Shown: piece after piece, positions 318-55,133 of the stretch | Layout of the letters: each line of letters starts with the position of its first letter | How positions within the stretch are numbered: the first letter of the stretch is position 1 | Assembly (NCBI GenBank): GCA_965205265.1 | Contig: CBDBGH010000003.1 | Span: forward strand, 1,472,001 to 1,536,000 | Length of the DNA stretch: 64,000 nt | Reading direction: 5' to 3' | Source of the DNA: Alphaproteobacteria bacterium | Lineage (GTDB): Bacteria > Pseudomonadota > Alphaproteobacteria > Bin95 | Program-made: the position numbers and the translations under genes | The notes under the pieces: generated by a model | What the model was told of the DNA's origin: nothing | Database searches by the model: none | Seen by the model: the letters and a program-made list of their open reading frames with translations, nothing else

Positions 318-983
318 CTAAAGCCGCTCGGCAATCAGTGCATCGAGTTCCGGGAATTGACGCCGGATCGCCAAGGCGAGTGCCTCCAGTACGAAAGCAG
401 GGGTCGCGCCGGGCAGCATGATGGAGCTTTCCAACTCCGCCGGACCGTCCGGGACTTGCAGGTCCAGCATGACCGCCTCGCGGACATTGCCCGATATGTC
501 GATGCGCCACATTTCCGGCACGCCAAGGCGGCGATAGGCAAGCGGCTTGTCCCCGTCGCCGCTGCTGCGCTCGACCTCGATGACAAGGTCGGGCGGGTTC
601 TCCAGCGCGAAGGCGTCGTGCTTGTCCTCGTCCAGCGGGTCGATCTCGTCCAGGCGCTCCGCCCTGTCGCCCAGATAGTAGCAGGCGTCGGGCTCGGCCC
701 CTGTATTCGTAGGGTCTTCCGGCCTGCGCCAGCGCGTCGAGCCCAGCAGCGCAACAGGAACCCCGTTTCTGGCGATGGCGTCCATTACGCGGTCCGTGCC
801 CCTCGAAAAACGCTCATGCGTCGAGGAGGGGGTCATGAGGTCCACGAAGCCGGTCACCGGATCGATGAATACCCGGCGCGCGAGCAGGTTCCAGTCGAAT
901 TTCTCCGTAAGCAGAGGCACGGCCTCCGGGTCGAGGCGGAACCGGACATATTCCGAGCCCATGCTGCCCGTCACCCGTTCCAT
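318..983 (-). CDS. Uma2/DUF820 family PD-(D/E)XK endonuclease-like protein
   Basis: MTPSSTHE, EPDACYY, PPDLVIEV, K..Y..LGVPEMW motifs; start uncertain (983 or 962). Confidence 0.85.
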   Translation of the reverse strand: MERVTGSMGSEYVRFRLDPEAVPLLTEKFDWNLLARRVFIDPVTGFVDLMTPSSTHERFSRGTDRVMDAIARNGVPVALLGSTRWRRPEDPTNTGAEPDACYYLGDRAERLDEIDPLDEDKHDAFALENPPDLVIEVERSSGDGDKPLAYRRLGVPEMWRIDISGNVREAVMLDLQVPDGPAELESSIMLPGATPAFVLEALALAIRRQFPELDALIAERL

Positions 984-1054
984 GCCTTGCGTCCTCCGCT
1001 TGTCGGCGCCGGGGCAGTATAGCCGGACCGGGCGAAGCCGTCCCGCTCGGCGTC

Positions 1055-1816
1055 TCACGCATTCGACACGGAATGCCCGCCGTCCACGGCGAGGAGCTGG
1101 CCGGTGATGTAGGCCGAGGCGTCGGAGAGCAGGAAGAGCAGCGGCGCGGCAAGGTCTTCCGGCTGGCCGAGGCGGCCCATCGGCACGCGGCGCATCAGCG
1201 CCTGCCCCGGCGGCGAGGCGAAGAAGGCCTCGTTGAGGTCCGTCAGCACATAGCCGGGCGCCGGCGTGTTGACCCGTACATGCTCGCGCGCAAGCTCCGC
1301 GGCCAGGACGCGCGTCAGGTGATGGAGCCCGGCCTTGGACGCTGCATAGCCGACGGCGCCGCGCCCGGTGCGCAGGCCCAGCAGCGAGCCGATATTGACG
1401 ATGCTGCCGCCCTCCCCACGCGCTACCATCCGCTTCGCGGCCTCCTGCGCCACGAACCAGGCGCCGGTGAGGTTGGTGTCGATGACGCGCCGCCAGTCGT
1501 CTTCCTCCGTCTCCAACAGCCGGCGCGTCACGGCGACGCCGGAATTGTTGACGACGGCGCGGACGGGCCCAAGCGCTTCCTCGGCGGCGTCGAAGCCGGC
1601 CGCCACCCGCTTGCGGTCGGTCACGTCCATGGAAATGACGGCGGCATTGCCGATGCCGGCGGCTGTTTCGGCGAGCGCCTCCATGTCCCGTGCCGCCAGC
1701 GCCACTTGCGCGCCCGCCGCAGCCGCAACCTCGGCGAATCCGCGTCCCAGACCGCGCGATGCGCCCGTCACCAGAACGGTCTTGCCGTCCAGCCGTAGAA
1801 TTCCCGCCATCGACAC
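1055..1816 (-). CDS. SDR family oxidoreductase
   Basis: TGASRGLG, NNSG, YAASK motifs. Confidence 0.9.
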   Translation of the reverse strand: MSMAGILRLDGKTVLVTGASRGLGRGFAEVAAAAGAQVALAARDMEALAETAAGIGNAAVISMDVTDRKRVAAGFDAAEEALGPVRAVVNNSGVAVTRRLLETEEDDWRRVIDTNLTGAWFVAQEAAKRMVARGEGGSIVNIGSLLGLRTGRGAVGYAASKAGLHHLTRVLAAELAREHVRVNTPAPGYVLTDLNEAFFASPPGQALMRRVPMGRLGQPEDLAAPLLFLLSDASAYITGQLLAVDGGHSVSNA

Positions 1817-1856: not shown

Positions 1857-2489
1857 ATGCTGATCGAGATTTTCTCCGACGTCATCTGCCCCTGGTGCTT
1901 CATCGGGCGCCGGCGCCTCGCCCGCGCCCTGGAGTCCCGGCCCGGCCTGGACCCGGTCATCCGCTGGCGGGCATTTCAGTTAAATCCGGGCATGCCGCCG
2001 GAAGGCATGGCGCGCCAGGACTATCTCGCGCTCAAATTCGGTGCGGAGGGCGGCGGGCCCGCCTATGACCGCATCCGCGAGACCGGACGGTCGGAAGGCA
2101 TCGATTTCCGCTTCGACAGCATAGAGCGCACGCCGAGCACGCTGGCCGCGCACAGGCTCATCCGGGAGTCGGGCGAGCGGCAGACGGCGGTGGTGGATGC
2201 GCTCTTCGACGCCTATTTCCTGAACGGCGAAGACATCGGGGACCCGGGGCAACTGGCGGATATCGCCTCGCGCGCCGGCTGGGACAGATGCGAGGCGGAA
2301 GCCTTTCTGGCCTCGGACGCCGCGAGCCAGGAAGTCCGGCAGGAGGACGCACGCGCGCGCTCGATGGGCATTCAGGGCGTGCCCTGCTTCGTGGTGGACC
2401 GCCGCTACGCCATTTCCGGCGCCCAGGAACCGGAATATTTCGCGCCCCTCTTCGACCTCGTGCAAAACGGCGAAGCCGCTGCCGAGTAG
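1857..2489 (+). CDS. DsbA-family (FrnE-like) oxidoreductase
   Basis: IEIFSDVICPWCFIG, GIQGVP, ISGAQ. Confidence 0.9.
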   Translation: MLIEIFSDVICPWCFIGRRRLARALESRPGLDPVIRWRAFQLNPGMPPEGMARQDYLALKFGAEGGGPAYDRIRETGRSEGIDFRFDSIERTPSTLAAHRLIRESGERQTAVVDALFDAYFLNGEDIGDPGQLADIASRAGWDRCEAEAFLASDAASQEVRQEDARARSMGIQGVPCFVVDRRYAISGAQEPEYFAPLFDLVQNGEAAAE

Positions 2490-2541
2490 CCGCCCGGCGG
2501 GACTTTGCCCCGCGCCTGTCCTTACCCCCGAGTCTCTGTTC

Positions 2542-2645
2542 CCTCATCCCGAGTGGCGGCGTCAGCCGTGTGTCGAGGGACGGGCGGGACCGGCGTGAGC
2601 CATCCTTCGATACGCGCCCGCAGGGCGGACGCTACTTGGGATGAG
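2542..2645. repeat. REP-like palindromic element (CTCATCCCGAG...CTTGGGATGAG type)
   Basis: Outer arms CCTCATCCCGAGT / ACTTGGGATGAGG and inner TCGAGGGA / TCCTTCGA; intergenic, downstream of the DsbA gene. Confidence 0.7.
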
Positions 2646-2719
2646 GCGAGGTCCGGGACGCTGCACAGGGTAGTATTGAGACAATTTGTTCGTAAAATTA
2701 AGAATATTTCTCTATACTA

Positions 2720-2747
2720 CTTGCATTATCAGAAAGTGTGCTATGAT
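2720..2747 (+). promoter_or_regulatory. Putative sigma70 promoter with extended -10
   Basis: CTTGCA...TGTGC-TATGAT in an AT-rich patch; an equivalent motif occurs in the other two element copies. Confidence 0.55.
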
Positions 2748-3006
2748 GGGTCCGAGGGAAGCGGCGTCCATGGACCGCTTCCCGCCCGCGCCGGTCCGGT
2801 GCGGCACGACCCCGATCCAGCCGACAGGTGAAGTGTGTCCTGTGCCCGCCTCGCGCGCGGGCAATCAGGCGCGCGAACCGCGCCGCCGCGAAACGCCCGC
2901 CCGCCCGCGCACAGGCGCCCGCGCAGGATGACGCGCGAATAAGGGTCGCTCCGGTGCCGGGGCGGTGTGCCGGATGAACATGAGACGAAACCAAGGAGCC
3001 GCACCC

Positions 3007-3918
3007 ATGCCCGCGCTCGACCCGACCCTCTCCCTCTCCTCCCGCCAGGAAGCCTTCTGCCGCCACTACACAGCCTCCGGCAATGCCGCAGACGCCGCAA
3101 GGCGCGCCGGCTATGCCGAACGCTCCGCAAGGCAGACCGGCTCCGCTCTGCTGGAACGCCCCTGGATCGTCGAGCGGGTGCGGCGCATCCGCATGTCGTG
3201 GCGGCGCACCGAGCGGGACGAGGCGCAGATCGTGCTCGCCCGTCTGGAGCAGGCCTGGGATGCGGCGGTCGCCAGCGGGTCCGCCTACATGATGGTCCGG
3301 ATCGTCCGCTTCCAGGCGGAGATTGCGGGGCTGACGCAGCCCGCCAACCGGGCGGCGCTCTGGTCGATGCCGGAGGAGGACGAGTTCGGGGAGATCGAGG
3401 CCGGCGAGGCGCAGGAGGCCGGCACCGTGCCGGGACCCCTCGCCGAAGCCGTGCGCAATGGCCGTGCCCGCGCCGAGCGCGCCCTTGCCCGCCATTGCGG
3501 GAACAGGGAGGCGATGGAGGCAGGGGAAGGCTTCGACAGAGCCGCCCATGCCATGACCGCCGAACGGCTCATGGCGGCCGTCGAGGAGCGCGAGAGCCTG
3601 CCCGTCTGCTTCGACCCGCCGCCGCCTCCGGCAAACGACCTGCCCCTCGCTGACGACCCGCCCGAAGACACCTACGACCCCGAGCGGTTCCCCGGCGAGT
3701 GGGCCGACGGCGACCGCCCGGGCGAGGAGGAGAGGGCCGAGGGCGCGGAGACCGACTGGCTCTACCAGCGCCGCAACGACTATGCCGAGATCCACGACCC
3801 CTGGTCGCCGGAAAACATCGAACGCCGCCAGGCCGACAGCCTCAACCGGCTCGAGAATGGGCCGCCCTTCAACCCGCCCCGCAACCCCGGTTTCTCACCC
3901 GACCATGACATTTCATGA
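3007..3918 (+). CDS. Terminase small subunit-like protein (N-terminal HTH) with acidic, Pro-rich C-terminal tail
   Basis: LSSRQEAFCRHYTASGNAADAARRAGYAERSARQTGSALL resembles the TerS N-terminus; AAGGAG RBS at 2993-2998. Confidence 0.75.
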   Translation: MPALDPTLSLSSRQEAFCRHYTASGNAADAARRAGYAERSARQTGSALLERPWIVERVRRIRMSWRRTERDEAQIVLARLEQAWDAAVASGSAYMMVRIVRFQAEIAGLTQPANRAALWSMPEEDEFGEIEAGEAQEAGTVPGPLAEAVRNGRARAERALARHCGNREAMEAGEGFDRAAHAMTAERLMAAVEERESLPVCFDPPPPPANDLPLADDPPEDTYDPERFPGEWADGDRPGEEERAEGAETDWLYQRRNDYAEIHDPWSPENIERRQADSLNRLENGPPFNPPRNPGFSPDHDIS

Positions 3919-3983
3919 CATCCCATGACACGGCGCGAGAGGGGCGCCGTTGCCCCCATTCACCGCCCCGGCTCGCCTCCGGT

Positions 3984-4943
3984 TCAGGCGAAGGCCTCTT
4001 CCCAGCTGCCGCGGGTTGCGGCCTTGGCGTATTCGGTGGCGCGGTTCTCGAAGAAATTGGCGTGCTCGACGCCGTTCAACATTTCGTCCATCCAGGCGAG
4101 CGGGTTCTCCGCAACGCCGAACGCCGCCTCGAGGCCCAGCTGCTCCAGCCGCCGGTCTGCGATGAAGCGGATGTAGGACTTCACCTCCTCCGCCTCCAGG
4201 CCTTCGACGCCGCCCATTTCGAAAGCGAGGTCGATGAAGGCGTCCTCATGCCCGATCACCGTTCGGCAGGCGTCTGCCAGGTCCCGGCGGAGCTCATCGG
4301 TCCACACTTCGGGATATTCGCCGACAAAGGTTCGGAAGAGACGGATCGCATTCTCGGTATGCAGGGTCTCGTCGCGCGCCGACCAGGCCACGATCTGGCC
4401 CATCCCCTTCATTTTGCCGAAGCGCGGGAAGTTGAGCAGGATGGCGAAGCTCGCGAAAAGCTGGACCCCTTCGGTGAAGGCGCCGAACACGGCGAGGGTG
4501 CGCGCGATGTCTTCTTTCGAATCCGAGCCGAACTGCTTCATGTAGTCGTATTTGTCGCGCATCGCCTTGTAGCGCATGAAGGCCGAATACTCGACTTCCG
4601 GCATGCCGACCGTATCCAGCAAATGGCTGTAGGCGGCGATGTGCACCGTCTCGATATTGGAGAACGCCGCCAGCATCATCTGTATCTCGGTCGGCTCGAA
4701 GACGCGGGCGTAATGCTTCATGTAGCAGTTGTTCACCTCGACATCGGCCTGGGTGAAGAAGCGGAAGATCTGGGTGAGCAGGTTCCGTTCGGCCGGGGTG
4801 AGGATGCGCCGCCAGTCGGTCACGTCGTCGGAGAGCGGCACTTCCTCCGGCAGCCAGTGGATGCGCTGCTGTGTAAGCCAGGCATCGTAAGCCCACGGAT
4901 AGCGGAAGGGCTTGTAGGTCGGGCTCGGGTCGAGAAGCGGCAT
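3984..4943 (-). CDS. nrdB: Ribonucleotide reductase class I beta subunit
   Basis: HWLPEEV, FFTQADVEV, ETVHIAAY, FTEG, RDETLH, NFFE motifs. Confidence 0.95.
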   Translation of the reverse strand: MPLLDPSPTYKPFRYPWAYDAWLTQQRIHWLPEEVPLSDDVTDWRRILTPAERNLLTQIFRFFTQADVEVNNCYMKHYARVFEPTEIQMMLAAFSNIETVHIAAYSHLLDTVGMPEVEYSAFMRYKAMRDKYDYMKQFGSDSKEDIARTLAVFGAFTEGVQLFASFAILLNFPRFGKMKGMGQIVAWSARDETLHTENAIRLFRTFVGEYPEVWTDELRRDLADACRTVIGHEDAFIDLAFEMGGVEGLEAEEVKSYIRFIADRRLEQLGLEAAFGVAENPLAWMDEMLNGVEHANFFENRATEYAKAATRGSWEEAFA

Positions 4944-16334: not shown

Positions 16335-16856
16335 CCTCGCGCCGCCGTGTCATGGAATGTCATGTTTGTCATGCGGGGCCGGCAGGACCTCGTGCGATGT
16401 GTCATGAGATGTCATGATTTGCATGTGCGCGGCGCATATGCTGTGACCTGTTCGGGCATGGGGGTCGGATATTCTCTCCGGTTCCGGTAACTTCTTATCT
16501 TCGACATGGGGCCCTTCTCCCGACCGGTCTTCGTTCGGTTCTTCCCGCCGCCCGGCTGTCCGGAGCGGCGGGACCCTGATTCGCGCGTAATGTGCGCGGA
16601 CGCCTGTGCGCGCGGGGGCGTACGTTTCGCGGCGGCGCGAATCGCGCGCCTGATTGCCCGCGCCTGCCCGCGCGTGCGAGCCAGCGGCGGGACGCACTTC
16701 GCCCGTTGGCTGAATCAGGTTTTTTTCGCGCCGGCGCGAACGGCAAAACGAAGCGGACCCGCGGATGCCGCTTCCTTCCTCCTATCTCATACTAGCACAA
16801 GAATTGAATTTGTCAACGAATATGAACGAAATATTTCTGTATATTCATGAACAAAA
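16335..16856 (-). repeat. Dispersed element copy 2 (no recognisable gene)
   Basis: Core at 16572-16659 (reverse); TGTCATG at 16348, 16358, 16367, 16400, 16410; promoter TTGACA-N16-TAGTAT on the minus strand at 16816-16789. Confidence 0.8.
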
Positions 16857-16906
16857 ATTCTTTCGATCCTGAGACAGCCTTCCAGAGCGCATTTCGGGGC
16901 AAACCC

Positions 16907-32995: not shown

Positions 32996-34046
32996 AGCGG
33001 AATCCGATCATGTTGCGGAGTATCCTGCGGCGTTGAAGTAGTTTTTGCATTCTTGCGGTGAGAAGGTCTGGGAGATTTGTCCGATGGTGTTCCAGAGGCC
33101 GTCGACAGTTCTCTCGGCAGCTTTTCGTAGCCTTGCCTTGAGCTTTGCGAAGGCGAGTTCGATGGGATTGAAGTCAGGGCTGTAGGGCGGCAGGAAGAGG
33201 AGTTGCGCGCCGGCGTCCTCGATCATCTTGCAAACCCTGGGTCCCTTGTGGCTTGAGAGGTTGTCCATGACGACGATATCGCCGGGCCTCAGTTCGGGGA
33301 CGAGGACCACTTTGACGTAGGCCTCGAAGGCATCGCGGTCGATGGCGCCGGAGAGCACGAAGGGGGCAATCATGCCGCGCGGCGTGAGCCCGGCGACGAA
33401 GGTGGTTGTGTTCCAGTGTCCGTGAGGGACGGCCATGCGCAGACGTTTGCCGCGCGGGGCCCAGCCGTGGGTGCGGGCCATGTTGGTCTTGGCCCCTGTC
33501 TCATCGATGAACACCAGCCGGTCGGGGTCGAGGCCGGGCTGGCTGTCGCGCCAGGTGCGCCGTCGGCTCAGCACGTCCGGGCGATCCTGCTCCGCCGCCT
33601 GGCCGGTCTTTTTTTGCGCGTGATGGCGTGGCGCACGAGGAAGCGCTGTATCGCCCCGTAGCTGAAGGCGAGGCCCCGGTCCCCGAGAGCCGCGCGCAAC
33701 TCCTCGATGGTCATGTCCCGCTTCTCCTCAAGAAGACCCAGGATCACATCGCGCTGCGCTTCGATCCGCCCCGAGCGACGGTCCCCGCCAAGCGCCTTCG
33801 GGCGCGCGTCTCCCTGTTCGCGCGCCAGCGCACGCCAGCGGCTCACGCTCGCCGCACTCACCCCAAAACGCGCACCGGCCGCTCTATGGCTCATGCCCGC
33901 ACATACCGCCGACAGAACCCGATTACGAAGATCAAGGGAAAGCGCTTTCGGCATCTCAGCCGGCCTCCTCATCCCGGCCGACAGCTTGAATCACAAATCA
34001 ATCGCCCCGTGAATCCCCCTCGATTCAATCAGGTCAGATCATGCTC
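32995..34046 (-). mobile_element. IS630-family insertion sequence (~1052 bp), TA target duplication
   Basis: Imperfect TIRs GAGCGGAATCCGATCATGTTG / GAGCATGATCTGACCTGATTG; TA at 32993-32994 and 34047-34048. Confidence 0.92.
33008..33954 (-). CDS. IS630 transposase in two ORFs joined by a probable programmed -1 frameshift
   Basis: ORF A HTH (MPKALSLDLR); ORF B DDE (FIDETG, MDNL..HK, PPYSPDFNPIE); slippery AAAAAAAG on the minus strand at 33615-33608. Confidence 0.9.
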
Positions 34047-54185: not shown

Positions 54186-54993
54186 TGTCATGGGATGTCA
54201 TGTTCCGGGCTCCTTCGCCGCCTCGTTTCCACGTCGCCCCGGCGCCGCCGGGCCGATACCTCTCTCCGGCGTTCCTCCGGTTGCAGGAGGTCCCCGCTTT
54301 CGCGGGGACGACGAAGGGAAGTACGGGGACGACGAAGGGAATTACGGGGACGACGAAGGGAATTACGGGGACGACGAAAGGGAGCGTGGACGCGACGAAC
54401 GGGGCGCGGGAAGGCCGGCCTCTCGACCGGGCGGCGGCCTCCGGCAAAGTGTCATGTTCTGTCATGCGCGCCCGGCGGGACGCCCTCCGATGTGTCATGC
54501 AATGTCATGATTCGCATGCACAGGGTGCATATGCTGTGGCCCGTTCGGGCATATGACCCCGCCCCTTTCTTCCTCCCCCGGCTTTCCCGCAAGCGGGGGA
54601 GGAGTTTTCCGGCGGCATGTCGTTCCTTCATCGCGTTTCGTTCCTCCCCGTTCCGTTCTCCCCGCCGCCGCGCCGAACGCGGCGAACGTTACCGATGCCG
54701 CCGCCGTCCGGCTCCCCGGAGCGACGGGACCCTGATTCGCGCGTATCCTGCGCGCCTGCGCCCGCGCCCGCCGGCGCGCGTTTCGCGGCGGCGCGAATCG
54801 CGCGCCTGATTGCCCGGATGCGCCCGCGCGCGCGAGGCCGACGCCGGGCGCACCCCTCCCGTCCGCCCGCGCCGGAGGTTTCGCCCCCAGCCACCGCTTC
54901 CCCGCCCGGAAACGCAAAAAGGCGGCCCCGGAAGCCGCCTTTCTATGCGCATTGTAACACAGTTTTTCTCAGGTCAAGCCCCTGGCGAACAAA
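54186..54993 (-). repeat. Dispersed element copy 3 (no recognisable gene; contains REP and tandem repeat)
   Basis: Core at 54728-54815; TGTCATG at 54186, 54196, 54450, 54460, 54493, 54503; promoter CTTGAC...TGTGT-TACAAT on the minus strand at 54978-54951. Confidence 0.8.
54289..54383 (+). repeat. REP half-site followed by a 21-bp tandem repeat (~3.7 units)
   Basis: GTCCCCGCTTTCGCGGGGAC, then units CGGGGACGACGAAGGGAA(G/T)TA at 54303, 54324, 54345, 54366. Confidence 0.9.
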
Positions 54994-55133
54994 ATCGAAG
55001 ATTAAATTCCAACAACGGACAGACGCATACCATCTCGGCCCGCCGGAACCCGCGTCGCTTCGGTGGCGCGGTTCCGACGGCCGGGCCCGGCGCGCGTTGA
55101 CTTCCCACCCCGCTCGCCGCCATGCTCGTTTCC

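Follow-up and report, generated by a model that had tools for sequence, protein, structure and literature searches.

The window analysed here, a 64,000-nucleotide stretch of an alphaproteobacterial genome (positions 1472001-1536000 of contig C3 in assembly G000), contains at 3007-3918 (+) a gene resembling those for the small subunits of phage terminases (TerS). This TerS-like gene is carried by a composite dispersed repeat, in which a promoter is followed by a non-coding leader (about 260 nt), by a gene in some copies only, and by an array of CATGACA heptamers. The layout of the unit is insertion-sequence-like, with the promoter in the left end and the stop codon in the right end. Quite possibly, at a little less than an even chance as judged from sequence, the gene product is a terminase-derived multimeric DNA-binding protein that would read the phased TGACA arrays in the repeat family to which its gene belongs. 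The assembly consists of three contigs, and is 98.98% complete with a contamination estimate of 7.28%.

The composite repeat and its CATGACA arrays

Three CATGACA heptamers begin at 3904, 3914 and 3924, and the stop codon of the TerS-like gene (TGA, 3916-3918) lies inside the second of them, as an earlier reading made from the sequence alone had noticed. The window contains 20 CATGACA, compared with 3.73 expected, and none of 100 shuffled sequences reached 20. Genome-wide, there are 737 (about 290 expected from base composition), including 81 clusters of at least two heptamers, and 103 of the 129 intra-cluster spacings are exactly 10 bp. Because 72 of the 81 clusters follow a leader of the same strand at a distance of no more than 2.5 kb, leader and array are taken as the two ends of one unit.

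The gene had been described as an orphan, but it exists in seven full-length copies (95–100% amino acid identity), plus fragments, inside a repeat of 76 copies. The seven copies are 93–98% identical in nucleotide sequence over window positions of about 2677-3936 (blastn, MAFFT). The 330 nt 5' of the ATG gave 62 blastn matches and 85 nhmmer matches (three rounds), all of them chromosomal, and none was found on the two small contigs. When elements are defined as the leader matches that include the 5' part of the model, 76 are recognized: seven with the full TerS-like gene, five with deleted versions of it, ten with an unrelated gene of 198 amino acids, and 54 with neither. Most copies have lost the gene. 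The five deleted copies share one junction at codon 22, and thus were copied after the deletion. Two pairs of elements in contig C3 (193-617 and 4632760-4633184; 42564-43195 and 5413556-5414187) have identical scores and flanks, a sign of large duplications or an assembly artefact. The features of the unit in question and the two other elements of the window are as follows.

2677-3930 (+): whole composite element, copy 1 of 3 in the window (alignment of the seven copies; nhmmer leader match)
2677-2720 (+): AT-rich left end carrying conserved TTGTTC and ATATTTCT, perhaps an operator (information content of the hidden Markov model; 75 left ends aligned)
2721-2747 (+): predicted sigma-70-like promoter, with TTGCAT, a 15-nt spacer and a TG-extended TATGAT (conservation in the family model)
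2748-3006 (+): conserved non-coding leader (62 blastn and 85 nhmmer chromosomal matches)
2756-2783 (+): leader hairpin GGGAAGCGG / CCGCTTCCC, the sole helix with compensatory changes (RNAalifold pair counts)
2857-2895 (+): leader core 1, near-invariant and containing AATCAGG (column entropy of about 0 in 93 leaders; top information content)
2931-2947 (+): leader core 2, a second CGCG-AA-n-CAGG-like motif about 75 nt past core 1 (information content, column entropy)
2993-2998 (+): ribosome-binding site (RBS) AAGGAG, 8 nt 5' of the ATG (read from the sequence)
3007-3918 (+): TerS-like gene, 303 amino acids (open reading frame, ORF; Pfam, PHROG and PDB profile matches)
3031-3366 (+): part homologous to small terminases, a helix-turn-helix (HTH) domain (residues 9-63) and a helical stalk (to about residue 120) (superposition on 2cmp, 3zqp over residues 15-90, library alignments)
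3367-3903 (+): lineage-specific half with a predicted helical hairpin (residues 144-196), acidic and proline-rich linkers and helices at 240-284 (AlphaFold2, AF2, model)
3904-3930 (+): three CATGACA at exact 10-bp spacing, the right end of the element, containing the stop codon (motif count, clustering)
16342-16885 (-): second element, without an ORF; promoter, leader, 3' module and 2+3 CATGACA (leader model; site empty in four congeners)
54186-55036 (-): third element, without an ORF; arrays at 54186-54202, 54450-54466 and 54493-54509 (leader model; site empty in the congeners G014 and G012)

The arrays and the gene occur together throughout the genus. Phased pairs of the form CATGACA-N3-CATGACA number 103 in G000 and 112–319 in 12 of its congeners; the other four congeners have 23, 1, 0 and 0, and the 20 genomes of two sister genera contain 0–1 each; a control with the reversed pattern gave 0 everywhere. 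The TerS-like gene exists in 12 of the 16 congeners, and is missing from exactly the four array-poor genomes (23, 1, 0 and 0 pairs); two fragmented congener assemblies have it in pieces only. There are 4–16 TerS-like matches per genome. The family is thus limited to one genus-level lineage (13 of 17 genomes) and more distant relatives, and is not present in the 20 sister-genus genomes. Among species-representative genomes, the gene was recognized in uncultured alphaproteobacterial metagenome-assembled genomes, several of them named as sponge bins, typically with many copies per assembly.

In 53 of the 55 related loci examined, the stop codon of the gene lies within the locus. A phased CATGACA pair marks the gene end in 27 of the 30 loci with at least 62% identity, so that the tie between gene end and array holds well beyond the window; the three exceptions are truncated or frameshifted. 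Most loci at this level of identity also have the same leader, with a CATGACA pair or triplet at the gene end. Among the loci below 62%, six of 23 have a CATGACA pair strictly at the gene end, and several more have mixed CCTGACA/CATGACA arrays with 10-bp spacing. Such CATGACA/CCTGACA arrays with 10-bp spacing are also found at the gene end in a clade of 52–60% identity, whose members lack the long leader. Wherever arrays occur, the recognition helix is SARQTG without change, and the two loci with ARQQG have no arrays. Since the CA and CC variants of the heptamer are mixed within single arrays while the helix is invariant, covariation between helix and motif is uninformative beyond these two array-less loci. 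At two places in contig C3 (1588531/1589143 and 840590/841347), arrays are split at CATGA/G by an insert with inverted ends, leaving half-arrays on either side. A TGGAGTGGGCCCC motif is often found 3' of the last heptamer (e.g. contig C3, 647575, 1576883 and 1588531); it may represent a target sequence or a further small repeat.

The boxes of the predicted promoter (TTGCAT, 2721-2726; TGcTATGAT, 2739-2747) are 15 nt apart in this copy, compared with 16 nt in the family consensus, which has TTGACA and a TG-extended TATGAT among the best-conserved columns of the model. A simple promoter scan left TTGCAT/TATGAT unscored and named TTGAGA/AAGAAT at 2676-2705 instead. The claims that the gene has a promoter of its own and a good RBS agree with the family model and with the AAGGAG, respectively. 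Beyond the promoter, the consensus continues with a GC-rich leader and a purine-rich stretch with an RBS-like GGAGG. Signs of a structured RNA in the leader are weak: the consensus fold of 93 non-redundant leaders from several genomes reached only -12 kcal/mol over 225 columns, one hairpin (the first) covaries, with AU/GC and GC/CG/AU exchanges at two of its pairs, and Rfam had nothing for window positions 2400-4100 at E-values up to 1. A hidden ORF was rejected, as no frame is open in more than 71 of the 93 copies and column entropy is without 3-base periodicity; the leader is therefore non-coding. Its conservation looks like a constraint on primary sequence, as expected of a protein-binding DNA site or of an RNA motif beyond the resolution of these tools.

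Copies without an ORF contain a CATG-rich 3' module that runs into the CATGACA arrays, and this module is absent from the copies with the TerS-like gene. The 198-amino-acid second cargo (locus L092, 388-981 (-), corresponding to contig C3, 2615087-2615680) has a helical N-terminal part and two YDGSED...W..QERR repeats. It matched no Pfam family, and PHROG_31793 (function unknown, 7.5e-5) was its only match among the profiles; 147 relatives without names were found in the same lineage, and no similarity to the TerS-like protein was recognized. A role of the element as a mobile promoter was rejected, since the genes downstream are oriented in the same direction in 39 cases and in the opposite direction in 36 (rough ORF calls). 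Nor is there a bias of the elements with regard to replication strand (34 versus 42), the origin deduced from GC skew being itself doubtful. The third element of the window is split by a tandem repeat at 54290-54400 (-), with four copies of a unit of about 21 nt, between its two array blocks. Just 5' of the first element, window positions 2539-2591 belong to a different dispersed repeat of about 50 bp (about 14 blastn copies in the chromosome, 87–91% identity).

The TerS-like protein and packaging partners

The ORF is intact and encodes 303 amino acids, followed by the TGA stop. The protein matched Pfam Terminase_2 (PF03592) with an E-value of 3.7e-13 and 50.7 bits (cut-off 26.1), residues 11-87 being aligned to profile positions 2-75 of 141, and PHROG_51, "terminase small subunit", with an E-value of 1e-13; an NCBIfam scan gave no match. 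A profile of 60 homologues matched SF6/SPP1-like G1P entries in the PDB (4zc3, 2cmp and 3zqp; E-value 2e-13) over residues 15-90. The AF2 model is all-helical (mean pLDDT 78, pTM 0.69), with an HTH at residues 12-50, a long helix at 52-90 and further helices at 93-106, 144-196 and 240-284. Residues 9-63 of the model superpose on 2cmp, the DNA-binding domain of SF6, with a root-mean-square deviation (rmsd) of 1.0 A over 55 residues (36% identity, Z 7.9), and Foldseek gave a local TM-score of 0.82. The N-terminal TerS-type HTH that had been proposed from the letters is thus borne out by profile and by fold.

The top ten rows of a BFVD fold search are either "small terminase" or without name. The rest of the model resembles generic helical hairpins only, and an ESM Atlas search with the C-terminal half gave nothing usable, so that the SF6 DNA-binding domain is the only specific fold match. 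Residues up to about 120, including the helices at 52-90 and 93-106, align with ordinary TerS, and profile coverage ends at position 75 of 141. By these alignments and the predicted fold, the first 120 residues or so (HTH plus helical stalk) descend from a small terminase of the SPP1/SF6 type. No beta-strands and no beta-barrel are predicted in the model. In known TerS, a helical hairpin and a beta-barrel form the oligomerization core, which assembles into a ring of 8–11 subunits. The TerS-like gene is in short a partial member of Terminase_2, encoding the DNA-binding domain and the stalk, without a partner or a matched ring core. The remaining portion had been regarded as a long acidic and proline-rich tail; the linkers are indeed acidic and proline-rich, but a purely disordered tail is at variance with the model, in which helices 144-196 and 240-284 are confidently predicted.

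Among the candidates scored, 365 relatives of the protein were found at E-values up to 1e-3. The best 120 of them are 62–97% identical and mostly full-length, and there seem to be several per genome; a single one has a source name, "terminase small subunit". In a library clustered at 50%, 1357 proteins were found at E-values up to 1e-3, 38 of them at 1e-30 or lower, and the weaker matches are ordinary small terminases of 130–260 amino acids aligned to query residues of about 10-120. Public phage and plasmid records contained no match to the protein, and contigs in IMG/VR matched only residues of about 7-80 (the HTH domain) at 35–54% identity.

The gene is situated between a DSBA-domain gene (1368-2489) and nrdB (3984-4943), the neighbours that had been named before, and a scan of the 43 other long ORFs in the window detected no phage head, terminase, integrase or satellite-type family, in agreement with the earlier statement that phage context is lacking there. 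The only mobile-DNA match in the window is a fragment of an IS630-type DDE_3 transposase at 33011-33574 (-). A gene for a putative restriction endonuclease of the Uma2 family is located at 318-1058 (-). The Terminase_2 match by itself would fit a simple prophage remnant, that is, a terS gene decaying after the loss of its prophage. There is next to no chance of this, given seven intact copies with dN/dS values of 0.05–0.23, the same architecture in many genomes and the lack of flanking phage genes. Full-length relatives of such a remnant should always sit in intact prophage head operons; instead, those that were found are all chromosomal repeat copies, and phage collections contained none.

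Six families of the large terminase subunit (TerL), namely PF03354, PF03237, PF20441, PF04466, PF17289 and PF05876, gave nothing in G000, and neither did the HK97 capsid family; a single sub-threshold fragment of the portal family is present on the 43-kb contig. The same TerL and capsid searches were positive in control genomes. Across the genus, TerL exceeded the cut-off in two of 17 genomes for PF03237 and in none of 17 for PF03354. A resident phage or gene-transfer-agent partner, whose packaging the protein could redirect according to the earlier suggestion, is therefore unlikely.

A partner might also arrive from outside. In this explanation, the arrays are pac-like, and the TerS-like protein recruits TerL from a pac-type phage that infects the cell or is induced, after which host DNA would be cut and packaged from about 80–300 sites, as a decoy defence or as built-in generalized transduction that spreads the element and its flanks. 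The TerS homology speaks for it, and so does the position of the arrays at the gene end, as pac sites are situated in or beside terS (e.g. the pac boxes of SPP1; PMC4737164). A further point comes from the 52–60% clade, where 11 of 16 loci (L052, L054, L055, L058, L060, L061, L063, L064, L067, L073 and L074) carry GAAC-N7-GAAC, a perfect direct repeat situated after a promoter-like TATAT box and before the RBS. Its reverse strand reads GTTCN7GTTC, the SOS box of Caulobacter as given in Table 1 of PMC9578287. The ancestral module may thus be damage-inducible, with damage switching such copies on when prophages fire, and a phage-related role is for this reason kept alive. On the other hand, the strict GTTC-N7-GTTC box was found in none of the 75 left ends of G000 elements. 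The scarcity of TerL and the lack of HK97 capsid described above also count against such capture, as do the absence of a full-length relative from phage records, plasmids and IMG/VR, and the unmatched C-terminal half of Terminase_2, which in known TerS provides the ring and the contact with TerL. On balance we regard it as unlikely, if worth serious attention. Somewhat less probable still is the more far-reaching idea that the protein and the hundreds of TGACA arrays constitute chromosome-wide artificial packaging-start sites, without a capsid or motor of their own, which capture the TerL of pac-type phages. If this were true, host DNA would fill the phage heads, which would amount to a decoy defence or to host-encoded generalized transduction, and the spread of the element with its flanks from cell to cell would be explained as well.

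Site comparisons and evolution of the copies

A tree was constructed from 35 copies (28 from named records and seven from G000), with fragments left out; for the former, 29 of 79 loci had been picked as likely full-length, and a usable ORF was obtained from 28, none being available from L044. The copies cluster by genome, with G000 forming a group of seven out of seven (support 100/100) and two other assemblies forming groups of four out of four and three out of three, while the two largest per-genome sets need two and three changes. The copy in L013, one of the named records, occupies the orthologous site between dsbA and nrdB, with flanks 90–92% identical to the window; its protein is 72% identical to the window copy and groups with its own genome-mates. 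In the closest pair of G000 copies, the centre of the unit is identical and both ends differ. The clustering by genome, the shared L013 site and the homogenized centre together indicate that resident copies have been converted by one another, whether or not bursts of copying took place as well. Among six G000 copies, 14 informative pairs gave dN/dS values of 0.05–0.23, and one pair had no differences; rows with the seventh copy (c4474) were dropped owing to an unaligned one-codon indel. The protein is therefore under purifying selection.

Occupancy of the sites differs between close relatives. In G014, the site between dsbA and nrdB contains 87 bp of unrelated DNA and no element. At the site of the second window element, four congeners have 6–25 bp between convergent genes, compared with 753 bp here, and the site of the third is empty in G014 and G012. 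At the three occupied and empty sites compared, neither target duplications nor inverted ends were recognized, and the intergenic DNA was replaced or layered with other small repeats. A Y1 transposase was rejected as the mobilizer, since PF01797 had no match in G000 and was found in one of the 17 genus genomes. IS110-family genes exist in 14 of the 17, including the array-free G003, and they sit inside or beside elements; the element ends are not matched by them. One IS110-family transposase gene of G000 (contig C3, 4157822-4158754) has inserted immediately 5' of a 3' module with its array. In G012 (contig C5, near 1085789, 1330472 and 1718027), three of the seven copies of one IS110 type are situated about 965–975 bp from the 3' ends of TerS-like genes in convergent orientation. 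The elements may be a preferred target of IS110.

These comparisons bear on the possibility of a domesticated chromosomal regulator or organizer, that is, a host DNA-binding factor for transcription or nucleoid structure with about 80 operator arrays, the repeats being kept because the host uses them. It would account for the purifying selection, for an orthologous site occupied in two species, for the confinement of all 85 leader matches to the chromosome (none on the two small contigs), and for the predicted strong, conserved promoter and the invariant leader cores in each unit. It does not sit well with gene copies that are multiple and variable (4–16 matches per genome), with sites gained or lost between close species, with three complete genus genomes that live without arrays, with the lack of orientation bias toward downstream genes (39/36) or replication (34/42), or with deletion derivatives, which are typical of selfish elements. 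Such a regulator seems to us rather improbable.

The proposed protein–array system and known systems

According to the reading that we prefer, in which a terminase-derived protein binds the arrays of its own repeat, the TerS-like protein would form a TerS-like multimer with HTH motifs about one DNA turn apart, and these would engage consecutive heptamers along the same face of the helix. Its targets would be the array that closes its own gene and, in trans, the sister elements without an ORF. The resulting nucleoprotein complex would serve the repeat family, by autoregulation and by the marking or pairing of copies that are to recombine, convert or be copied, and would serve no resident packaging motor. 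Copies without an ORF and those with internal deletions would be non-autonomous derivatives. In favour of this reading, gene and arrays co-occur across the 17 genomes of the genus, and the four array-poor ones are without the gene. The TerS homology, the copy numbers, the tie of leader and gene end to the array, the constant recognition helix, the purifying selection, the copied deletion derivative, the site differences, the clustering of copies by genome and the lack of a resident TerL are also counted in its favour. TerS rings of known structure place neighbouring HTH motifs roughly one turn of B-DNA from each other, and a wrapping of the DNA around the ring has been proposed; the pac site of SPP1 contains direct-repeat boxes (both described in PMC4737164).

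Several points weigh against it. The position of the stop codon in the array is partly forced, because TGA occupies all three frames across heptamers that are 10 nt apart. Because the Pfam match ends at position 75 of 141 and no strands are modelled, the ring-building portion of a terminase may be lacking. Nor can a fold of this kind be assumed to read heptamers specifically, because the isolated HTH domain of SF6 binds DNA without sequence specificity, as described in PMC4737164. Neither the second cargo protein of 198 amino acids nor the near-invariant leader cores have a role in the proposal. Nothing was found, be it a transposase, terminal inverted repeats or target duplications, that would explain the arrival of copies at new sites.

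Moreover, the arrays could be read by another protein, either a host factor of the OmpR/PhoB type or the enzyme that moves the element, the TerS-like gene then being one of two interchangeable cargoes. Ten elements carry the 198-amino-acid gene instead and 54 carry nothing, and the arrays extend 5' into the CATG-rich module that is absent from the TerS copies; the opposite strand of the array, TGTCAT, resembles a Pho-box half-site. However, Pho boxes are spaced by 11 bp, and the spacing here is exactly 10 bp. The link between gene and array is also kept down to about 52% protein identity, even without the leader, and array-free genomes are without the gene. A different reader of this kind is in our judgement quite improbable.

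If the preferred reading of a terminase-derived protein acting on its own repeats is correct, a bacterial interspersed repeat family has taken over a DNA-binding module of phage small terminases as its resident protein, and 100–300 defined phased arrays per genome are available for studying how ring-shaped HTH proteins read DNA. A full-text literature search with limited term sets found no pairing of a terminase module with an interspersed repeat. For uncultured marine symbionts, the question arises as to whether dispersed terminase sites shape transduction, phage resistance and genome rearrangement. As for annotation, calls of "terminase small subunit" in these genomes do not mark prophages.

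The G1P proteins of SPP1 and SF6 have a homologous HTH (36–40% identity, rmsd 0.8–1.0 A) and helical stalk, and share with the present case short direct repeats in or beside their own gene with a spacing that fits HTHs one turn apart (PMC4737164). They differ in that the second half of the profile is unmatched here, no beta-barrel is predicted and an extra lineage-specific half of about 180 amino acids is present, and in that the gene here has no adjacent or resident TerL and is multicopy in a dispersed repeat. The solo TerS of phage satellites (SaPIs and other phage-inducible chromosomal islands, PICIs) is also encoded apart from head genes and could likewise redirect the packaging of a helper, and the possible SOS-type operator of the distant relatives is another resemblance. 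Phage satellites, however, are islands of about 10–15 kb with integrase, replication and regulatory genes, whereas the unit described here has 0.5–1.25 kb, no integrase and 76 copies that mostly lack an ORF.

Insertion sequences (IS) have their promoter in one end and their stop codon in the other. The present element resembles them and the miniature inverted-repeat transposable elements (MITEs) in this respect and in its many dispersed copies, its copied internal-deletion derivatives (the five-copy subfamily) and its presence or absence between species. It is unlike them in having no transposase fold, terminal inverted repeats or target duplication, an enzyme acting in trans being possible, and in that its ends are dissimilar to each other and its centre is more homogenized than the ends. 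With REPIN-RAYT systems it shares the long-lived short repeats that are restricted to a lineage and tied to one protein family. RAYT, however, is a single-copy Y1 transposase encoded outside the repeats, whereas here the protein gene is multicopy inside the repeat and PF01797 has no match in G000. If the preferred reading holds, a protein-plus-site system would be added to the few repeat families with a known reader, of which REPIN-RAYT is an example. In its way of working, the element comes closest to an IS/MITE population or to a REPIN-type repeat served by a protein of its own, but it fails the tests that define either.

The nearest analogy found is that of the TAACTGA heptamer repeats in Beggiatoaceae and Cyanobacteria, which exist as hundreds of sets of 2–6 direct repeats per genome, mostly just upstream of start codons, and for which a post-transcriptional role has been suggested (PMC4679880). 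Both families show a patchy distribution among lineages, and TAACTGA is not known to have a reader protein. The situation in the present genus is different from that of TAACTGA, as the heptamers are separated by 3 nt (period 10), stand at the end of a promoter-bearing element and travel with a candidate binding protein.

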